From: Squalus acanthias
Taxonomy: Eukaryota
DNA length: 64,000 nucleotides
Assembly: GCA_030390025.1 (NCBI GenBank)
Contig: CM059432.1
Span: 88,104,001 to 88,168,000 of the forward strand
Direction of reading: 5' to 3'
Numbering within the stretch: position 1 is the first letter of the stretch; each line of letters starts with the position of its first letter. Of this stretch, positions 1,670-59,220 are shown in pieces. Both the position numbers and the translations under genes were made by a program. Under the pieces are notes generated by a model. That model was not told where the DNA came from and did not search any database. It was given only the letters and a program-made list of their open reading frames with translations.

Positions 1670-4021
1670 ATGGAACGAATTCTAGTATTGCTCGCGGCAA
1701 TCGGATGTGGATTGGCCTATCGAGGCCGCACCAAGGATGTCGTGGTGTTTGGATGTTCCGGGGACACGGCCCCCATCGCGGTGGATGGGACCGGAAGACG
1801 GGAGGCAGAGGAGACCAGCACCTATTTCCACAAGGGAAGGTGGCCAGGATGGCTGGGAACGAACTCAACGGAGTATTCTAGCACATCGGGGTTTGCCTAC
1901 AAAGAGACTTCTTTAATGTGCCCCAAAGTAAGGATCATCGCACCCAGGATCAGCGTCACCGTCGGCAAACGGATTTGTTTGACTTGTAGTGGGAATGTCC
2001 CATTGAGCCGATGGTGGTGGCTGCGAAAGCTGAGCAAAACTATGAGGAACTCTTCGGTCGAGTGGGAACGACTGGGTAATAATACCCATCGGACAATTAC
2101 GGGGACAAACGGACAAGTGAAAGTCTGTTGGGACAAATGGTGGGAACCGGACGAGGGAATTTATGTATGCATGTGGGGGTCAAAATACCCTTGCCCCAAA
2201 GGCATATCCATATTTTTCATTAATCAGTGGCAGGATAACGGACAGGGGATGAGGTGGGATGCGAGCACCAGGGGGTGCGGAGCCCCATACTCTTCGATCC
2301 CGGTAAATGCCACTGAGCTCATTACACGCCCACGCAAAGCCCCGCCCACGATTCCGGTGGTTCTAGCTGAGGAAGAAGGGTGCCCTAAAACTAGTAAGGG
2401 ACCCGGGAATGGTTTGGTACTGGTCCCCACAGACCAGATACTATTTCAGGGAGTACATTACGCGGTGGCCTCGGTGATTTTAAATCTCACCGAGGTGCGG
2501 TTACCAGAGTGGTGCCCCAAAAAGACGGAACAGTTGTATCAGGTCCTGTTGACCAAGATGTTCAGACAATTTTACGAATTCGATTTCGCGGAAATTGATA
2601 AAACAAGTTTGTACACCGCACCACAGGAAGTTTTGGATCAAGTAGGGAGGCAAAGAAGGGGTTTGGTGAACGATGCGTTCACTGCTTTTAACACGGGTAC
2701 ATCTGTGGTCAACGCTCTAGACAGTGTGGAGCTGCAGACCCAGATTAATGGTTTAAAGACACAATTAAAAGACATTCTAACAGATGAGAATAAAGTGGTA
2801 GGGTCGGGTCTACACGAGGACCAAGCCATGACTCTCCATTTAAAGGAAATTATAGCAGAGTTGGAGAAACATGCAAAGACGGTAAATGCCCTGATTAGGG
2901 AAGATCGGAATGCATCCGATCAAGCTGCGCAGAACGAGGTGTGCGTGCTTTACGGGGCGTGGTTACTGGGCGAAGGCCGCAGTAATTTGGAGGATTTAAA
3001 ACAAGGTTTGGTCCCGTCCTGGATAAGTAACAAACACCTGCGGGCGCTCCACCCTTTTCAGAACGCACTGAGCCCGTGCCAGCTCAGGCTAGCTTCAGAA
3101 GCATACCCAGTCCCCGTGGACTGCGGACGATCAAACCATACCATTATGGGTATAGTTTTACGCATGCCGGTTTTGGGCGACACAGCAAAGCCCGCCCCGG
3201 TGTATCGGGTAGAGAACATTGGTGTCATTCAGGGGGGAGCCCACATTCGTTATGCAGCGGTTCCACCTTACATCATCCGCTGGGAGCAAACGATGACAGG
3301 TACAGATCTCTCTGGTTGTCGTGGCAGGGGAGCACACATAATACTGTGTCCCCAGCACTTGAATGCCTTTTTAACACCACAGTGCGGGTTCAGAACGGCT
3401 GGCGCCAAGTCCATGAATTGCACCATGGAGGCAATGGCACAAGATCATGTGCCTCCGCAGGTAGCATACATCGGGGGTGGAACATATTGTGTTACCACTG
3501 CAGCGCAACACTACCAGCATGGAAACCGTAGCCGGTGTCCGGTGAGTGACAGCAGTTTCTGTTTTAAACCCAGGGCGGAAGTTCAAGTAGCACAACAGCG
3601 AATTATCCCAATCCCTGAACCATCCACTGTTCATCTCACAGTAAAAGAGAATTTCACCGACTTGCAACGATTCGTCGCGCATTTCGGATACCTCATTCCC
3701 CCTCTCCCTGAACACCTCACCAAGCTTTTAAAAGCCGTCGCGGTGTCACAGAAACATTTTTACACATTAGAACAGAAAACTGTCGAAATAGGAACAGACA
3801 TTCTGGATATAGTAGTTCCACCGTGGTGGAATCTGTTCACCAATATTGAAGTGCCTTCATGGATCAGAATAGCCTCCCACATTTTAGTCGTATGTCAAGT
3901 GTTTATTGTAGTGTACCTATTGGTCGTACATTGTAAAAGAGACAAACGCCTCACCAAGCATGAAAACACGGGAGAGTGGCGAGAACGTTACGTGCGCGTG
4001 CACGATGAAAGCACCGTGTAA
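1670..4021 (+). CDS. env: envelope glycoprotein, 783 aa, F-like class I fusion protein with N-terminal Ig-like domain
   Basis: Strong-Kozak ATG (AGGATGG); signal peptide MERILVLLAAIGCGLA; furin site RQRR (2648-2659) followed by fusion-peptide-like GLVNDAFTAFNTGTSVVNAL and heptad repeat; Cys-rich region; about ten N-glycosylation sequons; TM helix about 3869-3930; no stops. Confidence 0.9.
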   Translation: MERILVLLAAIGCGLAYRGRTKDVVVFGCSGDTAPIAVDGTGRREAEETSTYFHKGRWPGWLGTNSTEYSSTSGFAYKETSLMCPKVRIIAPRISVTVGKRICLTCSGNVPLSRWWWLRKLSKTMRNSSVEWERLGNNTHRTITGTNGQVKVCWDKWWEPDEGIYVCMWGSKYPCPKGISIFFINQWQDNGQGMRWDASTRGCGAPYSSIPVNATELITRPRKAPPTIPVVLAEEEGCPKTSKGPGNGLVLVPTDQILFQGVHYAVASVILNLTEVRLPEWCPKKTEQLYQVLLTKMFRQFYEFDFAEIDKTSLYTAPQEVLDQVGRQRRGLVNDAFTAFNTGTSVVNALDSVELQTQINGLKTQLKDILTDENKVVGSGLHEDQAMTLHLKEIIAELEKHAKTVNALIREDRNASDQAAQNEVCVLYGAWLLGEGRSNLEDLKQGLVPSWISNKHLRALHPFQNALSPCQLRLASEAYPVPVDCGRSNHTIMGIVLRMPVLGDTAKPAPVYRVENIGVIQGGAHIRYAAVPPYIIRWEQTMTGTDLSGCRGRGAHIILCPQHLNAFLTPQCGFRTAGAKSMNCTMEAMAQDHVPPQVAYIGGGTYCVTTAAQHYQHGNRSRCPVSDSSFCFKPRAEVQVAQQRIIPIPEPSTVHLTVKENFTDLQRFVAHFGYLIPPLPEHLTKLLKAVAVSQKHFYTLEQKTVEIGTDILDIVVPPWWNLFTNIEVPSWIRIASHILVVCQVFIVVYLLVVHCKRDKRLTKHENTGEWRERYVRVHDESTV

Positions 4022-4463: not shown

Positions 4464-4475
4464 AACAGGAGGGAC
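4464..4475 (+). other. polypurine tract
   Basis: AACAGGAGGGAC immediately before the LTR-initial TGTAG. Confidence 0.75.
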
Positions 4476-6113
4476 TGTAGAATTCGCAATATATTATTAA
4501 TAAGGAGAAAACACAGAGTCTCGTTCAAACAGCTTTTATTTCAGCAGAATGCTGTCAGGTTTCTCAAAGTGGACACAAGCAGCCTGTAAAATGGCCGCCG
4601 CACCTCGTGACAGAACATTCTAGACTTTTCGACAGGCAGACAAGATGGCGTTCCAATAAACATTTGTGCAAGATCGATTAAGATTCAGCACAGTGAAGAT
4701 AATACACGAGACATTATGGGTTTGCAGTATACACATAAATACTGAAATCGGTCTCCCAGGTACGAATAAAAGCTATTGTACCGAGTAATCAAGGGCCCAT
4801 CCAAAAGACATTAATATGTAAAATCCCAACGACTCTACGATGAGAGAGCCGTTAGCAGGTAGTTATACAAAACACTTGGAGGCCCCAAAACCCCTCCAGG
4901 GAGAACACCGACTGATTTAACAATGGGAGAAATATTAACAGGTACTCAGACAGTTACGAGTAGCCCCGAAACCCATTAAGAACGGAGATCACCCATACAA
5001 GACATTTGAGCGCCAAACTCAAACAAAAGAAAGGACATTAAGGTTGGGCGGGAAACGGAAGATTTTGTACTATAATTACAAGCTCCAACTGTCCATCTTT
5101 CTCTTATTCTCTTATCCGATCGACTCGTAACCTCGTGGCTGCTCCTGTGTTTTTGACTCGTAGTCTTGTTCCTGCTTGCCTGGTGCCTCTTTGAAAAAGA
5201 CTGTTGAACTTTCTGATCCGTTCGGATCTACCTCGTGTCGCGTAACGAAGACCTATGTTGGTAACTGGCATCGGAACCAAAGGCCCGAGATGAGATGAGA
5301 TGAGATGAGATGAGATGAGATGAGAAGAGAGGAAGACCATACTCATCGCCACGGTCAGTAAATCCCGACCGTGCCTGTAGGTCGAACAGCCAAGTTTTCC
5401 TTGCCAGGAAGACTTCTTTGAACTTGCAAGAACGGATCGTCAAAGATGATATTGACTGGGCTGTATTCGGAAAGTACCTGTTAAACCAACCAACACAGAT
5501 CTTCATCACAGCAGACGGTCCAGCCTGCTAGCCGGAGCAGAAGCAAGTAAACAAGTGGGACCAGGAGACCTCCTGATCGACACGTGGGTGCTGCGGTGAA
5601 AAACATCCGATCAGCTATTCGGAATTTCTCCGAGTTATCACGAGTGGTGAGCATGAGTCTCGAAATCCTACGAATCTAGCTAGGACAGATATTGATAGGG
5701 GAGGGTTTAAGTATTAAGGATACTTGTAATGTGTGCCCCTATTTACGGTGTGTCGTTCGTTCCTCGTTTCCCTAGGATCAGCTATATAACTGCTTGTAAG
5801 ATTGTACTGTCATTAATCTGTGCTTATGACATGTATTTCGTAATCTTAAATATCATGCAATAAAGATTTTCCATTTCGTACCATTCAACCGAGTCTACAT
5901 GAGTTTCATCTCCATTACTGCTCTCGCATCTAAGTCCAGTGTCTAGAACCATAAGGGCAAGTGATTCGAACCACTCACAGGTGTGTCTAGTGCTCCCAGA
6001 CTGGCTGGAGACCAGAACAGGCAACAAGGCCTAAACCCGCACTGACATACAGGCTGCACAGAGCCGCGTGAATCTCACAGGCTGCGAGACACGCAGGGTC
6101 AGAATCCCTTACA
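4476..6113 (+). repeat. 3' LTR (about 1.64 kb) of the env-bearing element
   Basis: Starts TGTAG, ends CTTACA; colinear with 17722-19352; TATA-like TATAAT at 5071, AATAAA at 5859. Confidence 0.88.
5287..5325 (+). repeat. (GAGAT)n microsatellite inside the LTR
   Basis: Direct reading; the equivalent solo-LTR site (about 18575-18616) is a degenerate GAGAC/GAA repeat. Confidence 0.95.
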
Positions 6114-47016: not shown

Positions 47017-49230
47017 ACACCATTGACCAGAAACTTAATTGGATCAGCCATGTAAATACTATGGCTACAAGAGCAGGTCAGAGGCTGTGTATTCTGCGGC
47101 GAGTGACTCATCTCCTGACTCCCCAAAGCCTCTCCACCATCTACAAGGCACAAGTCAAGAGTGTGATGAAATACTTGCCTGGATGAGTGAAGTTCCAACA
47201 ACACTCAAGAAGCTTGACACCATCCAGGACAAAGCAGCTCGCTTGATTGGCACCCCATCCACCACCTTAAACATTCACTCCCTCCACCACCGGCATACCA
47301 TGGCTGCAGTGTATACCATCTACAAGATGCACTGCAGCAACTTGCCAAGTCTTCTTCGACAACACCTCCCAAACCTGCGACCTCTACCAGCTAGAAGGAC
47401 AAGGGCAGCAGGTGCATGGGAACACCAACGACTGACTAAAAGTTCCCCTCCAAGTCACATACCATCCTAACTTGGGAATATATCACCGTTCCTTCATCAC
47501 CACTGGGTCAAAATCCTGGTACTCCCTACCTAATGCAAAAATTGGCCGTGTGGTCGATAGTGAGGAAGAAAGCTGTAGACTGCAGGAAGATATCAATGGA
47601 CTGGTCAGGTGGGCAGAAAAGTGGCAAATAGAATTCAATCCGGGGAAGTGTAAGGTAATGCATTTGGGGAGGGCAACAAGGCAAAGGAATACACAATAAA
47701 TGGTGGGATACTGAGAAGTGTAGAGGAACAGAGGGACCTTGGAGTGCATGTCCACAAATCCCTGAAAGTAGCAGGACAGGTAGATAAGCTGGTTAAGAAG
47801 GCATACGGGATGCTTTCCTTTATTAGCTGAGGCATAGAATATAAGAGCAGGGAGGTTATGCTAGAACTGTATAAAACATTAGTTAGGCCACTGCTAGAGT
47901 ACTGCATACAGTTCTGGTCACCACATTACAGGAAAGATGTGATCGCACTAGAGAGGCTACAGAGGAGATTTGTGAGGATGTTGCCAGGACTGGAGAATTT
48001 TAGCTAAGAGGAAAGATTGGATAGGCTGGAGTTGTTTTCTCTGGAACAGAGGATGCTGAAGGGAGATGAGGTGTATACAATTATGAGGGGCCTAGATAGA
48101 GTGGATAGGAAGGACCTCTTTCCCTTAGCAGAGAGGTCAATAACCAGAGGGGATAGATATAAAGTAATTCTTTTTAATTCGTTCCTGGGGTGTGGGCATT
48201 GCTGGCAAGGCCAGCATTTATTGCCCATCCCTAATTGCCCTTGAGAAGGTGGTGGTGAGCTGTCTTCTTGAACTGCTGCAGTCTGCGTAGTGAAGGAACT
48301 CCCACAGTGTTGTTAGGTAGGGAGTTCCAGGATTTTGACCCAGCGACGATGAAGGAACAGTGAGATATTTCCAAGTCAGGATGGTGTGTGACTTGGAGGG
48401 GAACTTGGAGGTGATGGTGTTCCCATGCACCTGCTGCCCTTGTCCTTCTAGGTGGTAGAGGTGACAGGTTTGGGAGGTGTGTTTCTGCAGTGCATCTTGT
48501 AGACACTGCAGCCATGGTGCATTGTTGGTGGAGGGAGTGAATGTTTAAGGTAGTGGATGGGGTGCTAATCAAGCGGGCTGCTTTTTCCTGGATGGTGTTG
48601 AGCTTCTTGAGTGTTGTTGGAGCTGCACTCATCCAGGCAAGTGGAGAGTATTCCATCGCACTCATTACTTGTGCCTTGTAGATGGTGGAAAGGCTTTGGG
48701 GAGTCAGGAGGTGAGACACTTGCCTCAGAATGTCCAGCCTCTGACCTGTTCTTGTAGCCGCAGTATTTATGTGGCTGGTCCAATTAGGTTTCTGGTCAAT
48801 GGTGACCCCCCAGGATGTTGATAGTGGGGGATTCGGCGATGGTTATGCCATTGAATGTCAAGTGGCAGTGGTTAGATGCTCTCTTGTTGGAGATAGTCAT
48901 TGCCTGGCACTTGTGTGAACATAAGAACATAAGAAATAGGAGCAGGAGTAGGCCATTTGGCCCTTCGAGCCTGCTCCGCCATTCAATAAGATCATGGCCG
49001 ATCTTTTACCTCATCTTCACTTTCCTGCACTATCCCCATATCCCTTGATTCCTTTAATATTCAAAAATCTATCAATCTCTGTCTTGAATATACTCAACAA
49101 CTGAGCCTTTGCAGCCCTCTGGGGTAGAGAATTCCAAAGATTCACCACCGTCTGAGTGGAGAAATTCCTCCTCATCTCAGTCCTAAATGGCGAACCCCTT
49201 ATTCTGAGACTGTGTCCCCTGGTTCTAGAC
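47017..49230. mobile_element. cluster of LINE fragments: family B + 47017-47530, CR1 + 47530-48165, family B - 48170-48916, CR1 - 48917-49230
   Basis: ORF-track peptides and tails match the two LINE families. Confidence 0.8.
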
Positions 49231-50910
49231 TGACGGGGAACCAAGGGTCGAATGAGGGTGAGGAACTTAACGTAATTAATATGAGTAGAGAAAAAATACT
49301 AGCGAAAATAATGGGACTAAAAGCCAACAAATCCCCTGGCCCTGACGGCCTACATCCTAGGGTTCTAAAAGAGGTGGCTGAAGAGATAGTGGATGCATTG
49401 GTTTTGATTTTACAAAATTCCCTAGATTCTAGCATGGTCCCAGCAGATTGGAAGGTCGCAAATGTAACACCACTATTCAAGAAAGGAGGGAGAGAAAAAA
49501 CAGGAAACTACAGGCCAGTTAGCCTGACATCAGTCGTCGGGAAAATGCTGGAATCCATTGTTAAGGAAGTGGTATCAAGTCACTCAGAAAATCATAACAT
49601 GTTTAGGCAGAGTCAACATGGTTTTATGAAAGGGAAATTGTGTTTGACAATTTTATTAGAGTTTTTTGAGGATGTAACTAACAGGGTAGATAAAGGGGAA
49701 CCAGTGGATGTAGTATATTTGGATTTCCAAAAGGCATTTGATAAGGTGCCACATAAAAGGTTATTACACAAGATTAGGGCTCATGGGGTTGGGGGTAATA
49801 TAATAGCATGGATAGGGATTGGTTAACGGACAGAAAACAGAGAGTGGGGTGAAACAGATCTTTTTCAGGTTGGCAAGCTGTAACTAGTGGGGTGCCGCAA
49901 GGATCAGTGTTGGGGCATCAGCTATTTACAATCTATATTAATGACCTGGATGAAGGGACCGAGTGTAATGTATCCAAGTTTGCTGATGATACAAAGCTAG
50001 GTGGGACAGTAAGCTGTGAGGAGAACACAAAGGGTCTGCAAAGGGATATAGATAGACTAAGTGAGTGGGCAGTAAGGTGGCAAGTGGAGTATAATGTAGG
50101 GAAATGTGAGGTTATTTACTTTGGTAGGAAGAATAGAAAAACAGAATATTTTTTAAATGGTGAGAAACTTTCAAATGTTAGTGTTCAGAGAGATTTGGGT
50201 GTCCTCGTGCAAGAAACACAGAAAACTAGCATGCAGGTACAGCAAGCAATAAGGAAGGCAAATGGCACGTTAGCATTTATTGCAAGGGGGTTGAAGTATA
50301 AGAGTAAGGAAGTCTTGCTACAATTGTACAGGGCCTTGGTGAGGCCACACCTGGAGTACTGTGCACAGTTTTGGTCTCCTTATCTAAGGAAGGATATACT
50401 TGTCTTGGAGGCGGTGCAACGAAGGTTCACTAGATTGATTCCTGGATTGAGAGGGCTGTCCTTTGATGAGAGATTGTGTAGAATGGGCCTATACTCTCTG
50501 GAGTTTAGAAGAATGAGAGGTGATCTCATTGAAACATACAAGATTCTAAAGGGGATTGACAGGGTAGATGCTGAGAGGTTGTTTCCCCTGGCTGGAGTGT
50601 TTAGAACTAGGGGGCATAGTCTCAGGATAAGGGGTCAGCCATTTAAAACTGAGATGAGGAGAAATTTCTTCACTCAGAGGGTTGTGAATCTTTGGAATTC
50701 TCTGCCCCAGAGGGCTGTGAATGCTGACTCTTTGAGTATATTCAAGGCTGAGATAGATAGATTTTTGGATTCTAGGGGAATCCAGGGATATGGAGATCGG
50801 GCGGGAAAGTGGAGTTGAGGTCGATGATCAGCCATGATCTTATTGAATGGCGGAGCAGGCTTGAGGGGCCGTATGGCCTACTCCTGCTCTTATTTGTTAT
50901 GTTCTTATGT
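49231..50910 (+). mobile_element. CR1 LINE, RT to 3' end, one frameshift
   Basis: SPGPDGLHPR, NYRPVSL, YLDFQKAFD, PQGSVLG, FADD; TTATG tail repeats. Confidence 0.92.
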
Positions 50911-52025
50911 TCCCCAGCCAGGGGAAACATCCTCCCTGCATCTACCCTGTCAGGTCCTGTAAGAATTTTGTAAGTTTCAATGAGATCACCTCTCATTCTT
51001 CTGAATATAGGCCCAGTCTACTCAATCTCTCCTCATAGGACAATCCTCCCATCCCAAGAACCAGTCTGGTGAACCTTCGTTGCACTTCCACTATGTCAAG
51101 TATATCCTTCCTTAGGTAAGGAGACCAAAACTGTATACAATACTCCAGGTGTGATCTCACCAGGGCCCTATATAATTGCAGTAAGATGTCTTTACTCTTA
51201 CACTCAAATCCTCTTGTAATCAGGCCAACATACCATTTGCTTTCCTAATTGCTTGCTTTACCTGCATGTTAACTTTCAGTGATTCGTGTACAAGGACATC
51301 CAGGTCCCTCTGAACACCAACATTTCCCAATCTCTCACCATTTAAAAAACACTCTATTTTCTATTTTTCCTACCAAAGTGGATAACTTCACATTTCTCCA
51401 CATTATATTCCATTTGCCATGTTCTTGCCCTCTCACTTAGCCTGTCTATATCCCCTTGAAGTCTTCTTGCATCCTCCTCATAACTTACATTCCCACCCAG
51501 CTTTGTATCATCAGCAAATTTGGATATATTACATTTGGTCCCCTCATCCAAATCATTGATGTAGATTGGGAATAGCTGAGGCCCAAGCATTGATCCTTGC
51601 GGTACCCCACTAGTTACAGCCTGCCAACCCGAAAATGACCCGTTTATTCCTACTCTCTGTTTTCTGTCCGTTAACCAATCCTCAATCCATGCATGTATAT
51701 TACCCCCAATCCCATGAGCCCTAATTTTGTTCAATAACCTCTTGTGTGGCACCTTATTGAATGCCTTCTGAAAATCCAAATACACCACATCCACTGGTTC
51801 ACCCTTATCTATTCTGCTAGTTACAACCTCAAAGAACTCTAACAGATTCGTCAAACATGATTTCCCTTTCATAAATCCATGTTGAGTCTGCCCATTCATA
51901 TTATTATTTTCTAAGTGACCTGTTACCACGTCCTTAATAATAGATTCTAGCATTTTCCCTACTACTGATGGCAGGCTAACTGGTCTGTAGTTCCCTGTTC
52001 TCTCTCTCCCTCCTTTCTTAAATAG
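50911..52025 (-). mobile_element. CR1 LINE RT fragment
   Basis: NYRPVSL, YLDFQKAF, FADDTKL. Confidence 0.9.
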
Positions 52026-52179
52026 TGTGGTGTGAATGTTAATTGCCACTTATCAGACCAAGCCTGAATGTTGTCCAGGTCTTGCTGCATGCAGGCATAG
52101 TCTGCTTCATTATCTGAGGAGTTGCGAATGGATTTGAATACTGTGCAATCATCAGCGAACATCCCCACTTCTGACCTTA

Positions 52180-55379: not shown

Positions 55380-55457
55380 ATTTAATCAACTTTGAAAAAC
55401 TTCGCACTCAAACTTTTTGGACGAACTCGGAACTAAGGATCCAGGGAATCACCCATC

Positions 55458-58400
55458 ATGGAAAACATCCTTAAACCATCGCGTCTTGACTTGGACCCAA
55501 ACACCCCAGCAGCCGGTAAGGTGTGGAAACACTGGTATCGCACGTTTGACAATTTTCTTGAATATTGCAAGGCTGATGATGACTCAAAATTGCGGATACT
55601 CATCAACTGTGTCACCCCGAATGTATTTCAGTATGTCGAGGAATGGGGCAGTTACGAGGAGGCAATTCGGACGCTTAAAAGACTATATACTAAGACACCG
55701 AATGAGGTCTATGCCAGACATCTACTAGCTACAGCCCAACAAGGGCCGGAGGAATCCATTGATAAATTCCTCCAAGAGCTTCGCAGACTTAGTATGGACT
55801 GTAACTTTCAGGCGGCCTCAGCTGAGCTGTACCGTGAAGAAATGATCCGTGATGCTTTCATCTGCGGGCTTGCCTCCCCATTTATACGCCAGCGTCTACT
55901 GGAAAGTAAGACACTTGAGCTTCAGAGAGCTTATGACATGGCTTGCTCTCTAGATCTGGCAAAAAGAAATGCAGACCTTTATACAGTGCCCAGACCTCGG
56001 TCTGCTGCCTTAACTACAGTCAGGCAATTTAAGAGGCCACAGGTGAACTCTATTAGGGAGGACTTTATCCCTGACGATCAATCTGATGACTTCACTGATG
56101 AAGAGGATGATGACCCCACTGTGGCAGCCTCTTGGCAATCTAAGAAATGCTTCTTTTGTGGTGATGAGTTTCACCCTCGGAAATTCTGCCCTGCTAGCAA
56201 TGCGTTTTTCAGTCATTGCAACAAAAAGGGTCATTTTGCAAAGGTTTGCCTATCAAGAGCCTCTACGAGGGCTTATCAAGCTAAGTCCTACCGAACTGCC
56301 CCGGTAAGGGCCTATCAAGATGTTCCGGCTAAAATCTATCGTGCTTCCTCTCGGGTTTTCTCTCGAAGAAACACACCTAGAGTTTTAGCCACTCTTTGTG
56401 CAACGACACCAATTACAGCTGCTTGTCCTCAGAACCTATTCCATGCAGCTACAAAAGCATCAATTAATGGACATACTTTAGATGCCTTAATTGACTCAGG
56501 TAGCACTGATAGTTTCATTAGGGAACAGATTGTTGCAGAGTTAAAGCTACATGTTTTCCCATCGGACCAGGCAATTGCGATGGCTCAGTCATCACTTAAT
56601 ACCAGAATTTCTGGCTTTTGTATGGTTGAAATAACACTTAATGGTCACAGGTATCCCTCCACCCGGCTTTCGGTGCTCAAGGACTTATGTAGTGATCTTA
56701 TCTTAGGGCTAGATTTTCAAAAGCAGCATAAGAAGCTCACCATTGAGTTCGGCGGATCCAAACCTGAACTCACTATTTCTAATATACGACCTCGATTACC
56801 GTTCTGTGCATTGTCAGCAGCTTCACTGGATGAACCCTCACTGTTTACCAGTATCCCTCCTCGATGCAAACCGATTATAACAAAGTCACGACGTTTCAGT
56901 CAGGAAGACCAGTCTTTTATTGCGGCTGAGATTTCTCGGCTTTTAGCAGAGGATATCATCGAGCCTTGTTCGTCGCCATGGCGCGCCCAGGTCGTTATTG
57001 TTAAGAACCCTCTACAACCTCACAAGAAACGGCTGTGCATTGACTATTCACAGACCATCAATCAATATACGGACTTGGACGCATACCCATTGCCGCGCAT
57101 CGATGATATGGTTAATAAACTGGCTGAGTACACGGTGTTCTCAACATATGATCTGAAAAGTGCCTATCATCAGGTACCCTTGAAGGTCTCAGACAAGCAG
57201 TATACGGCCTTTGAAGCCAATGGACGGCTGTATCAATTTCGTCGCCTCCCCTTTGGGGTCACTAATGGAGTGGCTGTCTTCCAGCGAGCAATGGATGACC
57301 TGGTCAAACAGGAAGACTTAAAGGATACGTTTCCTTATCTGGACAATATTACTGTCGCAGGGCGCAATCAGCGGGAACATGACGCCAATCTCCAACGATT
57401 TTGGGATGCACTCCAGCACCGTAATTTGACATTAAATGCGGCTAAATCCATTGAGTCACAACCAACCATCAACATCCTTGGCTATTGTGTGGGCAATGGC
57501 ATCATTAAACCTGACCCTGAAAGGCTTCGCCCACTCCAAGAACTCCCGCCACCTAAGAATCCGGCCTCCTTGCGCCGGGCCCTCGGCCTGTTTGCATACT
57601 ATGCTAAATGGATTCCTAACTTCTCGGACTGAATCCAACCTCTACTGAAGGCCAGCACATTCCCACTAGACACAGCGGCTGTTGCAGCCTTTAACCTCCT
57701 GAAAAAACAGTTGGAGAAAGCGGCTCTTCACTCCATCGATGAGAGTCTTCCTTTTGTTGTTGAGTGTGATGCCTCGGAGGTGGCGATCTCAGCCACTCTG
57801 AATCAGGATGGTCGTCCGGTGGCATTTTTGTCCAGGACTTTTCAAGGGGCTAAGCTACATTATCCTCCAGTCGAGAAAGAAGCTACAGCCATCATAGAGG
57901 CAGTACGGAAGTGGAGTCATCTCCTAGCTCGCCAGCACTTTACCTTAATCACGGACCAGCGATCGGTCGCCTTCATGCTCGATAATCGAAAATGGACCAA
58001 AATTAAAAATAATAAAATCCAGCTTCGGCGGCTGGAATTGGCCTCTTTTGGTTACACCATCCACTATCGACCTGGCAAGGAGAATGTGGCTCCGGATACC
58101 CTCACACGAGCATTCTGCTCCGCCATGGCACCCTCTACGCTCGTAGACATCCATGATGGGTTGTGTCATCCGGGCGTTACTCGCATGCTACACTTCGTGC
58201 GGTCCCGAAATCTCCCATTCTCTACCGGGGATGTAAAGAAGATGTGCTCGGACTGCAGAGTCTGTGCGGAATTGAAACCTCAGTTTTTCCGCCCCTCGGG
58301 TGGTATACTCATACATGCGACCCAGCCAATGCAACGGCTTAGCATCGATTTTAAGGGGCCGTTGCCCTCTTCAACTCGCAACACTTATCTATTGACCATG

Positions 58401-59220
58401 GTTGATGAGTATTCCCGTTTTCCGTTTGCCTTTCCCTGCCCCAATATGCTGACGACCACGGTTATCAGCTGCCTTGAGCAGGTATTTGCTTTCTGTGGCA
58501 TGGCATCCTATGTTCATTCGGATCGGGGACCTTCTTTTATGTCAGGAGAACTCAAGGCCTATCTCTCGGAACGGGGTATTGCTGCCAGCAGAACGACGCC
58601 TTATCATCCGGTCGGGAATGGGCAAGTCGAGCGTTTTAACGCTATCATCTGGAATGCGGTACGTCTGGCTTTGAGATCTCGGGGCCTACCCAACCAGCAA
58701 TAGGAAGCAGTACTTCCAGACGCATTACACTCCACACGGTCCCTCCTTTCGACCGCCACAAATACGACGCCTCATGAACGGTTCTTCCGATTTCAGCGTC
58801 GCTCATCCTATGGGATATCTCTCCCATCGTGGCTGACTGCACCGGGACCAGTGCTACTCCGAAGATATGTTCGGGCGTCTAAGAATGACCCCCTGGTAGA
58901 TGAGGTTGAGCTCACTGACGTCAACCCTACCTACGCCTATATTCGGTATCCTGATGGTCGGGAATCTACCGTGTCATTGCGGGATCTGGCTCCCTGCCCG
59001 CCGAAACATAGAGGGATACCAGGGGATGATATTGTACCAGGCACATCTCTGGGCTCGCCAGGTGCCTCTCATCACGATCTGGATCTGACGCCGGCTGGTA
59101 CCTCACTCCAGCGTGCCGACCTGGGGCAAACTGACTATGAGCCCGTCGGGGCTCGCACGCGCAGCCACGATCCACCCCGTACCATATGCTCGGAAACGGA
59201 TCTGCCACAGCCCTGCCCGA
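55458..59220 (+). pseudogene. gag-pol: single-frame gag-pol with two nonsense codons (TGA 57630, TAG 58701)
   Basis: ORFs at 55458, 57711 and 58851 share one frame; CCHC knuckles, LIDSGS, LPFG, YLDN, CDAS/EKEA/TDQ RNase H, HHCC and D-D-E integrase. Confidence 0.92.

Follow-up and report, generated by a model that had tools for sequence, protein, structure and literature searches.

The 64,000-nucleotide stretch analysed here (hereafter the window: Squalus acanthias, assembly GCA_030390025.1, CM059432.1:88,104,001-88,168,000, forward strand) begins in the integrase end of an endogenous retrovirus (ERV) and continues through its envelope gene, env (1670-4021), to the 3' long terminal repeat (LTR; 4476-6113). 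We found computationally that this Env joins two units predicted to fold separately: an immunoglobulin (Ig) domain of V/I type is appended N-terminally to the scaffold of an F-type fusogen. Residues 81-186 are predicted with high confidence to form an Ig-superfamily (IgSF) fold, and the reading that we favour, with somewhat better than even confidence, is that of an Ig head placed on an F-type Env for attachment. The features of env, all on the forward strand, are as follows.

1670-4021, + strand: intact env open reading frame, 783 aa (P0001), from its translation
1670-1720, + strand: probable signal peptide, judged by eye from the sequence
1721-1909, + strand: N-terminal segment of about 63 aa, conserved (49-54% identity) within the window clade, from sequence comparison
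1910-2227, + strand: predicted IgSF (V/I-like) domain, aa 81-186 (106 aa), from motifs, profile and predicted fold
1985, 2012-2020 and 2150-2170, + strand: landmarks of the Ig domain, namely the B-strand Cys, the C-strand Trp and the F-strand motif, from the sequence
1919, 1976, 2126 and 2192, + strand: codons of the extra Cys of the Ig domain, from the sequence
2228-2380, + strand: linker of 51 aa containing 6 Pro and a single sequon, one of the fastest-changing parts of Env, from sequence and divergence
2381-2659, + strand: F2-like start of the fusogen core with a furin-type site, RQRR (2648-2659), at its end, from sequence and the ESM atlas
2660-3868, + strand: F1-like ectodomain with putative fusion peptide, heptad region, Cys-rich domains I/II and HRB region, from the ESM atlas and a PDB profile match
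3869-3937, + strand: transmembrane helix, then a short cytoplasmic tail, from the hydropathy peak at aa 734

The IgSF signature, composed of a B-strand Cys, a C-strand Trp and an F-strand Cys within D-x-G-x-Y-x-C, is present at canonical spacing. The initial annotation, which had proposed an Ig-like domain fused to the N-terminus of a retroelement Env, quoted a peptide that is indeed encoded in the env frame, and the positions it gave are correct: the codons of C106 and C167 lie at nucleotides 1985 and 2168, WWW (W115-117) at 2012-2020 and DxGxYxC (residues 161-167) at 2150-2170. Two details needed correction. C106 and C167 are 61 positions apart but enclose 60 residues, not 61; and the proposed extent, 1922-2220 between signal peptide and F-like core, is right as to location, but the domain spans about 1910-2227 and adjoins neither neighbour, with about 65 residues between the probable signal peptide and the Ig domain and a Pro-containing linker of 51 residues between the Ig domain and the F core. 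Among 10,000 shuffles of Env, 7 contained the full C-W-[DE]xGxYxC pattern, which was picked after the sequence had been seen, and the DxGxYxC motif taken by itself turned up in 19; an unrelated DxGxYxC occurs once elsewhere in the window, in a stop-riddled minus-strand frame. The domain contains four further Cys (84, 103, 153 and 175), and additional Cys pairs beyond C106-C167 are plausible because C103, C153 and C175 are invariant in all eight close homologs. When the whole Env was compared with the PDB, all eight matches at E<=1 were IgSF chains aligned on the Ig segment (E 0.37-0.72). The top matches of this segment in the ESM atlas were Ig-type clusters (0.90), and the UniRef entry of one relative (P0013) bears the automatic name "Ig-like domain-containing protein".

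Homologs of the module were collected from the same Env position in older families of the same genome and in skate, sawshark, bamboo shark and two frogs. In an alignment of 12 Env modules (A3), which contains no host sequence, no row differs at the first Cys or at two Gly, including the motif Gly, and 11 of the 12 keep the second Cys. Compared with the PDB, the A3 profile matched 280 sequences at E<=1, of which the best 60 all belong to the IgSF; the top matches were JAM-A (1.3e-8, two domains summed), DIP-alpha (1.4e-5) and CRTAM (2.1e-4, single domain). A profile built without the window clade gave the window domain 17.7 bits, against a maximum of 10.9 bits for shuffled sequences (1880 scored of 2000). 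Scored individually as profiles, the three sub-types of module scarcely recognise one another.

The structure model based on A3 (predicted local distance difference test, pLDDT, 69) shows seven strands in the order A'-B-C-D-E-F-G and a short E-F helix. The Foldseek matches listed for this model were all Ig chains (E from 3.7e-5, TM-score about 0.6), and the best 50 VIA matches were all Ig domains (Z 8.5-9.2, root-mean-square deviation 1.8-2.9, for example 2.6 over 80 aligned residues). TREM-1, NCAM2, FGFR2, a single-chain variable fragment and others fell within one Z unit of each other in VIA, a resolution that separates neither the V from the I set nor one host family from another, and identity to the matched IgSF structures was 20% at most. 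Among predicted viral folds, the nearest were Ig proteins of poxviruses, herpesviruses and adenoviruses, including CD200-like and cytokine-receptor-like ones, and viral Ig proteins fitted the model no worse than those of hosts (E 3.9e-5). The Ig fold claimed in the initial annotation is thus upheld by the A3 profile and by the predicted V/I-set fold.

Judged from sequence comparison, this Env has the core of a class Ib (F-type) fusogen. Residues 236-755 were assigned by the ESM atlas to Fusion glycoprotein F0 clusters (0.93, 207 shared features), and a 25-row family profile compared with the PDB retrieved foamy virus Env as the sole fusogen match (E=0.0047); both results bear out the F-like core recognised earlier. 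Single-sequence searches with the whole Env in Pfam (including Fusion_gly), the PDB and NCBIfam returned no F protein. The furin site RQRR occupies residues 327-330 and is followed by the putative fusion peptide, which is only mildly hydrophobic (0.51), by heptads and by one transmembrane helix (peak at aa 734). Foamy virus Env is itself F-like, and in F-type proteins domain II has an IgSF fold, with the N-terminus of the scaffold located at this domain (PMC11468914). The Ig segment is additional to domain II, because two related Envs, P0037 and P0047, begin their core right after the signal peptide. The module-free relatives start at the residue equivalent to aa 238, and the atlas recognised the F core in full without the Ig segment.

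The Ig module recurs in divergent Envs of shark, skate and frog, and in related Envs the same slot is empty or holds either a Cys-less V-set domain or a Cys-rich domain that is not Ig. We built a tree of 22 F cores, from which P0002, P0003, P0031 and P0041 were left out (chimeric, short or without the motif); it is unrooted, the midpoint being used, and for six of its rows the N-terminus is unknown. Envs with an Ig module fall on either side of the midpoint, and Cys-rich, Cys-less V-set and module-free Envs are interspersed among them. Grouping of the 11 Ig-bearing rows in one clade was rejected (approximately unbiased test, p=5e-63), and at least four changes of state are needed. This distribution is compatible either with an old single gain followed by swaps and losses or with multiple gains, which are not separable because the core tree has no root.

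Some occupants of the slot deserve description in their own right. The Cys-less V-set domain belongs to P0034 (Pfam V-set, E=0.0015) and is not recognised by the Env-Ig profile; against the PDB it gave weak CEACAM/SLAM matches (E 0.23-0.6), with a non-Ig protein as best match, and it is a candidate for a second capture. By eye, neither P0034 nor its tree neighbour P0037 has a clear furin site. In a shark Env clade (P0012, P0023, P0031 and P0032), the Ig slot is occupied by an unrelated Cys-rich N-terminal module, for which the PDB gave no useful match and which the Env-Ig profile does not recognise. In P0019 and P0069, one from a frog and the other in the frog clade, we noted by eye that a hydrophobic stretch at the N-terminus and a further furin-type site precede the Ig domain, an arrangement that resembles the foamy virus leader peptide. 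Finally, P0047 and P0042 are coelacanth genes of the same Env family, the former without N-terminal module, and are possibly domesticated copies.

The Ig domain is under purifying selection. Compared with four older copies, its proportion of non-synonymous differences (pN) is 0.22-0.26, the synonymous sites being saturated (pS 0.72-0.79), and 29 young copies carry eight synonymous and three non-synonymous variants within it. The six key residues tested, which the initial annotation expected to be kept in sister copies, are intact in all 29. Relative to the F1 regions, the Ig domain evolves about 2.3-2.6 times faster (dN 0.26 vs 0.10-0.12, L055); it is slower than the linker, which has a dN of 0.37. 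Full-length env matches are 99-100% identical and 54 of 57 have no stop (57 scored of 12,916 candidates); all 150 Ig-domain matches scored, among 5,456 candidates, are 98-100% identical. The env variants of the young copies show an excess of synonymous changes, which, together with the very young age of the family, suggests that it spread by infection rather than by intracellular copying.

Position, exchangeability, faster evolution and precedent together incline us towards a role of the Ig domain in attachment. Paramyxoviruses place attachment on a separate protein. In the mechanism that we propose for the window Env, drawn from the biology of F proteins and foamy Env, the precursor would trimerise and be cut by furin at RQRR, after which the Ig domain would stay on the outer (F2/SU-like) subunit. 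It would then bind a cell-surface molecule, so that attachment is provided in the same protein as the fusogen, and the F core would refold and fuse the membranes. The module is fairly likely to be of host origin: it may derive from an animal IgSF gene acquired long ago and too diverged to name, and its slot would later have been swapped or emptied in some lineages. The F scaffold is known to accept receptor-binding modules N-terminally or as an insert (PMC11468914). Binding to heparan sulfate was considered and dropped as a family trait, because the window Ig domain is basic (16 K/R vs 6 D/E) whereas its relatives are near neutral and the frog modules acidic. Tentatively, and as a possibility rather than an expectation, the N-terminus of these Envs could be a swappable attachment cassette, filled repeatedly from host IgSF genes in a clade of retroviruses of sharks and amphibians that has been little studied: mostly with a disulfide-bonded Ig domain, independently with a Cys-less CEACAM/SLAM-like V domain in one lineage, and with an unrelated Cys-rich domain in another.

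Several results weigh against an Ig attachment head. The limits of the modules in A3 were set by eye with the Ig motifs in mind, and the fold model depends on this alignment. The model obtained from the single sequence is poor (pLDDT 47), its best Z being 6.0 to non-Ig sandwiches. A profile of eight close homologs is weak, with IgSF chains in three of seven PDB matches and a best E of 0.03. With Pfam Ig_3, the window Env alone gave E=0.021 and 15.8 bits against a cut-off of 30, and no single module exceeded the Pfam cut-off (best homolog 19.7 bits); any Ig-family match at E<=2 was found for 7 of 11 modules and none for the other four. The IgSF affiliation that the initial annotation anticipated is therefore seen as profile homology and as a predicted beta-sandwich topology, but the score with the curated Ig HMM stays below the cut-off. 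The search for a host donor returned seven proteins, all Envs and none a host IgSF protein, which is weak evidence as this search needs shared 5-mers. As to function, the F scaffold can do without the module, since module-free Envs exist (P0037, P0047 and all 22 of the published lokiretrovirus Envs that are informative). Moreover, only about three residues lead from module to core in the frog Envs, which suggests that the Ig domain is seated laterally or basally on the head and not at its apex.

Of the alternatives, the one that survives best, although we consider it unlikely, gives the Ig domain a structural role: it would pack on domains I/II, stabilise or shield the pre-fusion trimer or aid folding, and receptor binding would lie elsewhere. 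The very short frog linker and the location of the scaffold N-terminus at domain II (PMC11468914) speak for such a role, as do the conservation of eight Trp and as many as six Cys within the window clade and the up to five sequons on the frog modules, and the existence of module-free relatives agrees with a structural or accessory part. Close relatives have unrelated domains or nothing in the slot, however, and the linker of the window clade is long (51 aa) and fast-changing, and both points speak against a structural role.

The origin of the module is a distinct question. Rather than directly from a host, it may have come from another virus, either as the IgV-like receptor-binding domain (RBD) of gamma-type Envs, RBD-C, through env recombination, or as an Ig gene of a large DNA virus; we regard this as quite unlikely. 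Transfer of RBDs between Env groups is documented (bioRxiv 10.1101/2024.03.17.585361), and the equally good fit of viral Ig proteins to our model is in its favour. RBD-C, by contrast, has no B-F disulfide, whereas both Cys are present in 11 of the 12 modules here, and there was no retroviral RBD among the fold matches listed, a weak point. A host donor stays the preferred origin.

An immune function appears improbable. In this reading, virions or expressing cells would display the Ig domain as a mimic of a host IgSF ligand, to serve as an immune decoy or modulator. The nearest viral folds include the poxvirus, herpesvirus and adenovirus Ig proteins cited above, and many such viral Ig proteins are immunomodulators. 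Mimics, however, usually stay recognisably like their template, and this role is less likely here because the module has no likeness to any host protein, with at most 20% identity to any IgSF structure and no host protein retrieved. Finally, it is highly improbable that the segment is not IgSF at all, being a convergent beta-sandwich or a part of F's own Ig-like domain II (PMC11468914): the single-sequence scores are sub-threshold, but profile, structure and language-model evidence agree on Ig, and the whole F core is recognised without the segment, as the start of the module-free relatives also indicates. We retain the Ig head on an F-type Env, with attachment as its favoured role.

The remainder of the provirus has the organisation of an ERV. 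The DNA upstream of the window encodes gag, protease, reverse transcriptase (RT), tether, RNase H and integrase (IN), in the order LTR-gag-pro-RT-tether-RNaseH-IN-env-LTR, and the window itself contains the following parts outside env.

1-1383, + strand: 3' end of pol, with the end of the integrase core, an SH3-like C-terminal domain and a long acidic/Pro-rich tail, from translation and Pfam
4464-4475, + strand: polypurine-tract-like stretch, from the sequence
4476-6113, + strand: 3' LTR of about 1.64 kb with a 4-bp target duplication, from LTR comparison

The 3' LTR is 99.57% identical to the 5' LTR, which lies upstream of the window, over 1630 nt. It is unusually long, with a run of GATGA pentamers near 5288-5325. 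Past the SH3-like domain, the integrase frame (540-1383) runs on for about 280 aa; this tail is acidic and Pro/Glu-rich and, close to its end, contains a short duplicated repeat. In the upstream DNA (locus L031), the first gag ATG past the 5' LTR is overlapped by a primer-binding-like site (L031:4049-4075) that starts with TGG and lies 6 nt downstream of this LTR. At the end of gag (L031:5859-5865), TGA is followed by CTAG, in frame with pro-pol, in the one copy seen; presumably this is a stop-readthrough context. The pol of this copy (L031:5862-9300) has a frameshift inside RT, which leaves two overlapping reading frames, and gag and env are open. Elsewhere in the window, 49128-52049 and 55437-58700 contain, by eye from translations, fragments of LINE-like RT and a separate Gypsy-like gag-pol.

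The N-terminal half of the RT matched foamy virus best in the PDB (8e-32), ahead of murine leukaemia virus (MLV; 5e-19) and Ty3 (4e-13), and the C-terminal half with RNase H gave MLV-type sequences first. The RT shares several motifs with the snakehead retrovirus (SnRV) row of the alignment in PMC7947760, which is the best match by eye. A lokiretrovirus identity was dropped because the RT motifs differ from those of lokiretroviruses (PFG in all 18 lokiretrovirus RTs examined, LPQG here, by eye) and match the SnRV row. The element is probably a recently amplified ERV of the SnRV clade, a provisional assignment from RT motifs compared by eye. None of 117 pattern matches in viral_contigs was confirmed as a relative, and one raw RNA run, from a different organism, gave 19 aligned reads, less than 90% alike and none on env.

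As for novelty, the initial annotation knew of no retroviral Env with this architecture. That claim was overstated, as N-terminal IgV RBDs are known in gamma-type Envs, but no account of an Ig domain on an F-type scaffold was found. In the PMC and bioRxiv texts searched, neither an F-type Env with an IgSF domain nor the structure of an SnRV-clade Env is described. The term "immunoglobulin" occurs nowhere in the available parts of PMC7947760 (with part of its supplement), PMC9040795, PMC12440569, PMC13709493, PMC10699275, PMC12583693, PMC12193657, PMC4422223 and bioRxiv 2023.10.26.564294, 2021.11.23.469661 and 2023.10.17.562709, and occurs once, in an unrelated sense, in that of PMC11521997. 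Retroviral Envs headed by an Ig domain are known, and foamy virus supplies a known F-type Env that has its own receptor-binding part; what is new is the Ig domain on the F-type scaffold.

Four known systems come closest. The RBDs of MLV, feline leukaemia virus and Env-Pb1 are modified IgV domains, N-terminal and placed before a Pro-rich region, and alpha-like mammalian Envs carry a SIRP-derived IgV domain with the canonical B-F disulfide, for which host capture was shown (bioRxiv 10.1101/2024.03.17.585361). These Envs resemble the window Env in having an Ig-type domain at the N-terminus, then a Pro-rich linker, exchangeable between lineages, but theirs is a gamma-type surface/transmembrane (SU/TM) Env, whereas here we find an F-type one, in shark, skate and frog hosts, with no recognisable donor. 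Foamy virus Env gp130 (8RM0/8RM1; PMC11468914) is likewise a retroviral Env on a paramyxovirus/pneumovirus F scaffold with a built-in receptor-binding module; its RBD, however, has about 330 aa and a fold of its own and is inserted before the furin site, unlike the N-terminal Ig domain of 106 aa described here. Lokiretrovirus Env (PMC7947760) is F-like, with a furin site and, by eye, a similar first core motif, and Pol has tether and RNase H in both; in contrast, all 22 informative lokiretrovirus Envs (the 23rd is truncated) pass straight from signal peptide to core. Lokiretroviruses were not reported from cartilaginous fish in that source, although its genome table includes shark genomes. SnRV-like ERVs are known in elephant shark (CmiERV lineage I), fish, amphibians, reptiles and birds (PMC12193657, PMC4422223), and the likeness of our element to SnRV is one of RT motifs, judged by eye.

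Two further systems are more distant. The crocodilian CrocERV31 (PMC4299795) also carries host Ig domains under purifying selection, but there a whole nectin3 reading frame, about 76% identical to the host gene, replaces env and is not fused to a fusogen. The S1 part of coronavirus spike (PMC11468914, PMC12583693) consists, as here, of modules N-terminal to a class Ib core, although these are much larger, belong to an unrelated virus and are likened to our Env by architecture alone. If the cassette reading were true, the family would provide a class Ib fusogen whose receptor-binding head is an IgSF domain, and would parallel, among retroviruses, the gain of S1 by coronavirus spike. Our results extend F-type Envs to what looks like the SnRV clade, and the family offers natural Envs with and without a module for comparison; the isolated 106-aa domain would be a simple probe for a receptor in cartilaginous fish. 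The Ig domain described here would represent a third way of adding attachment to an F scaffold, beside the foamy virus insert and the coronavirus S1 modules.

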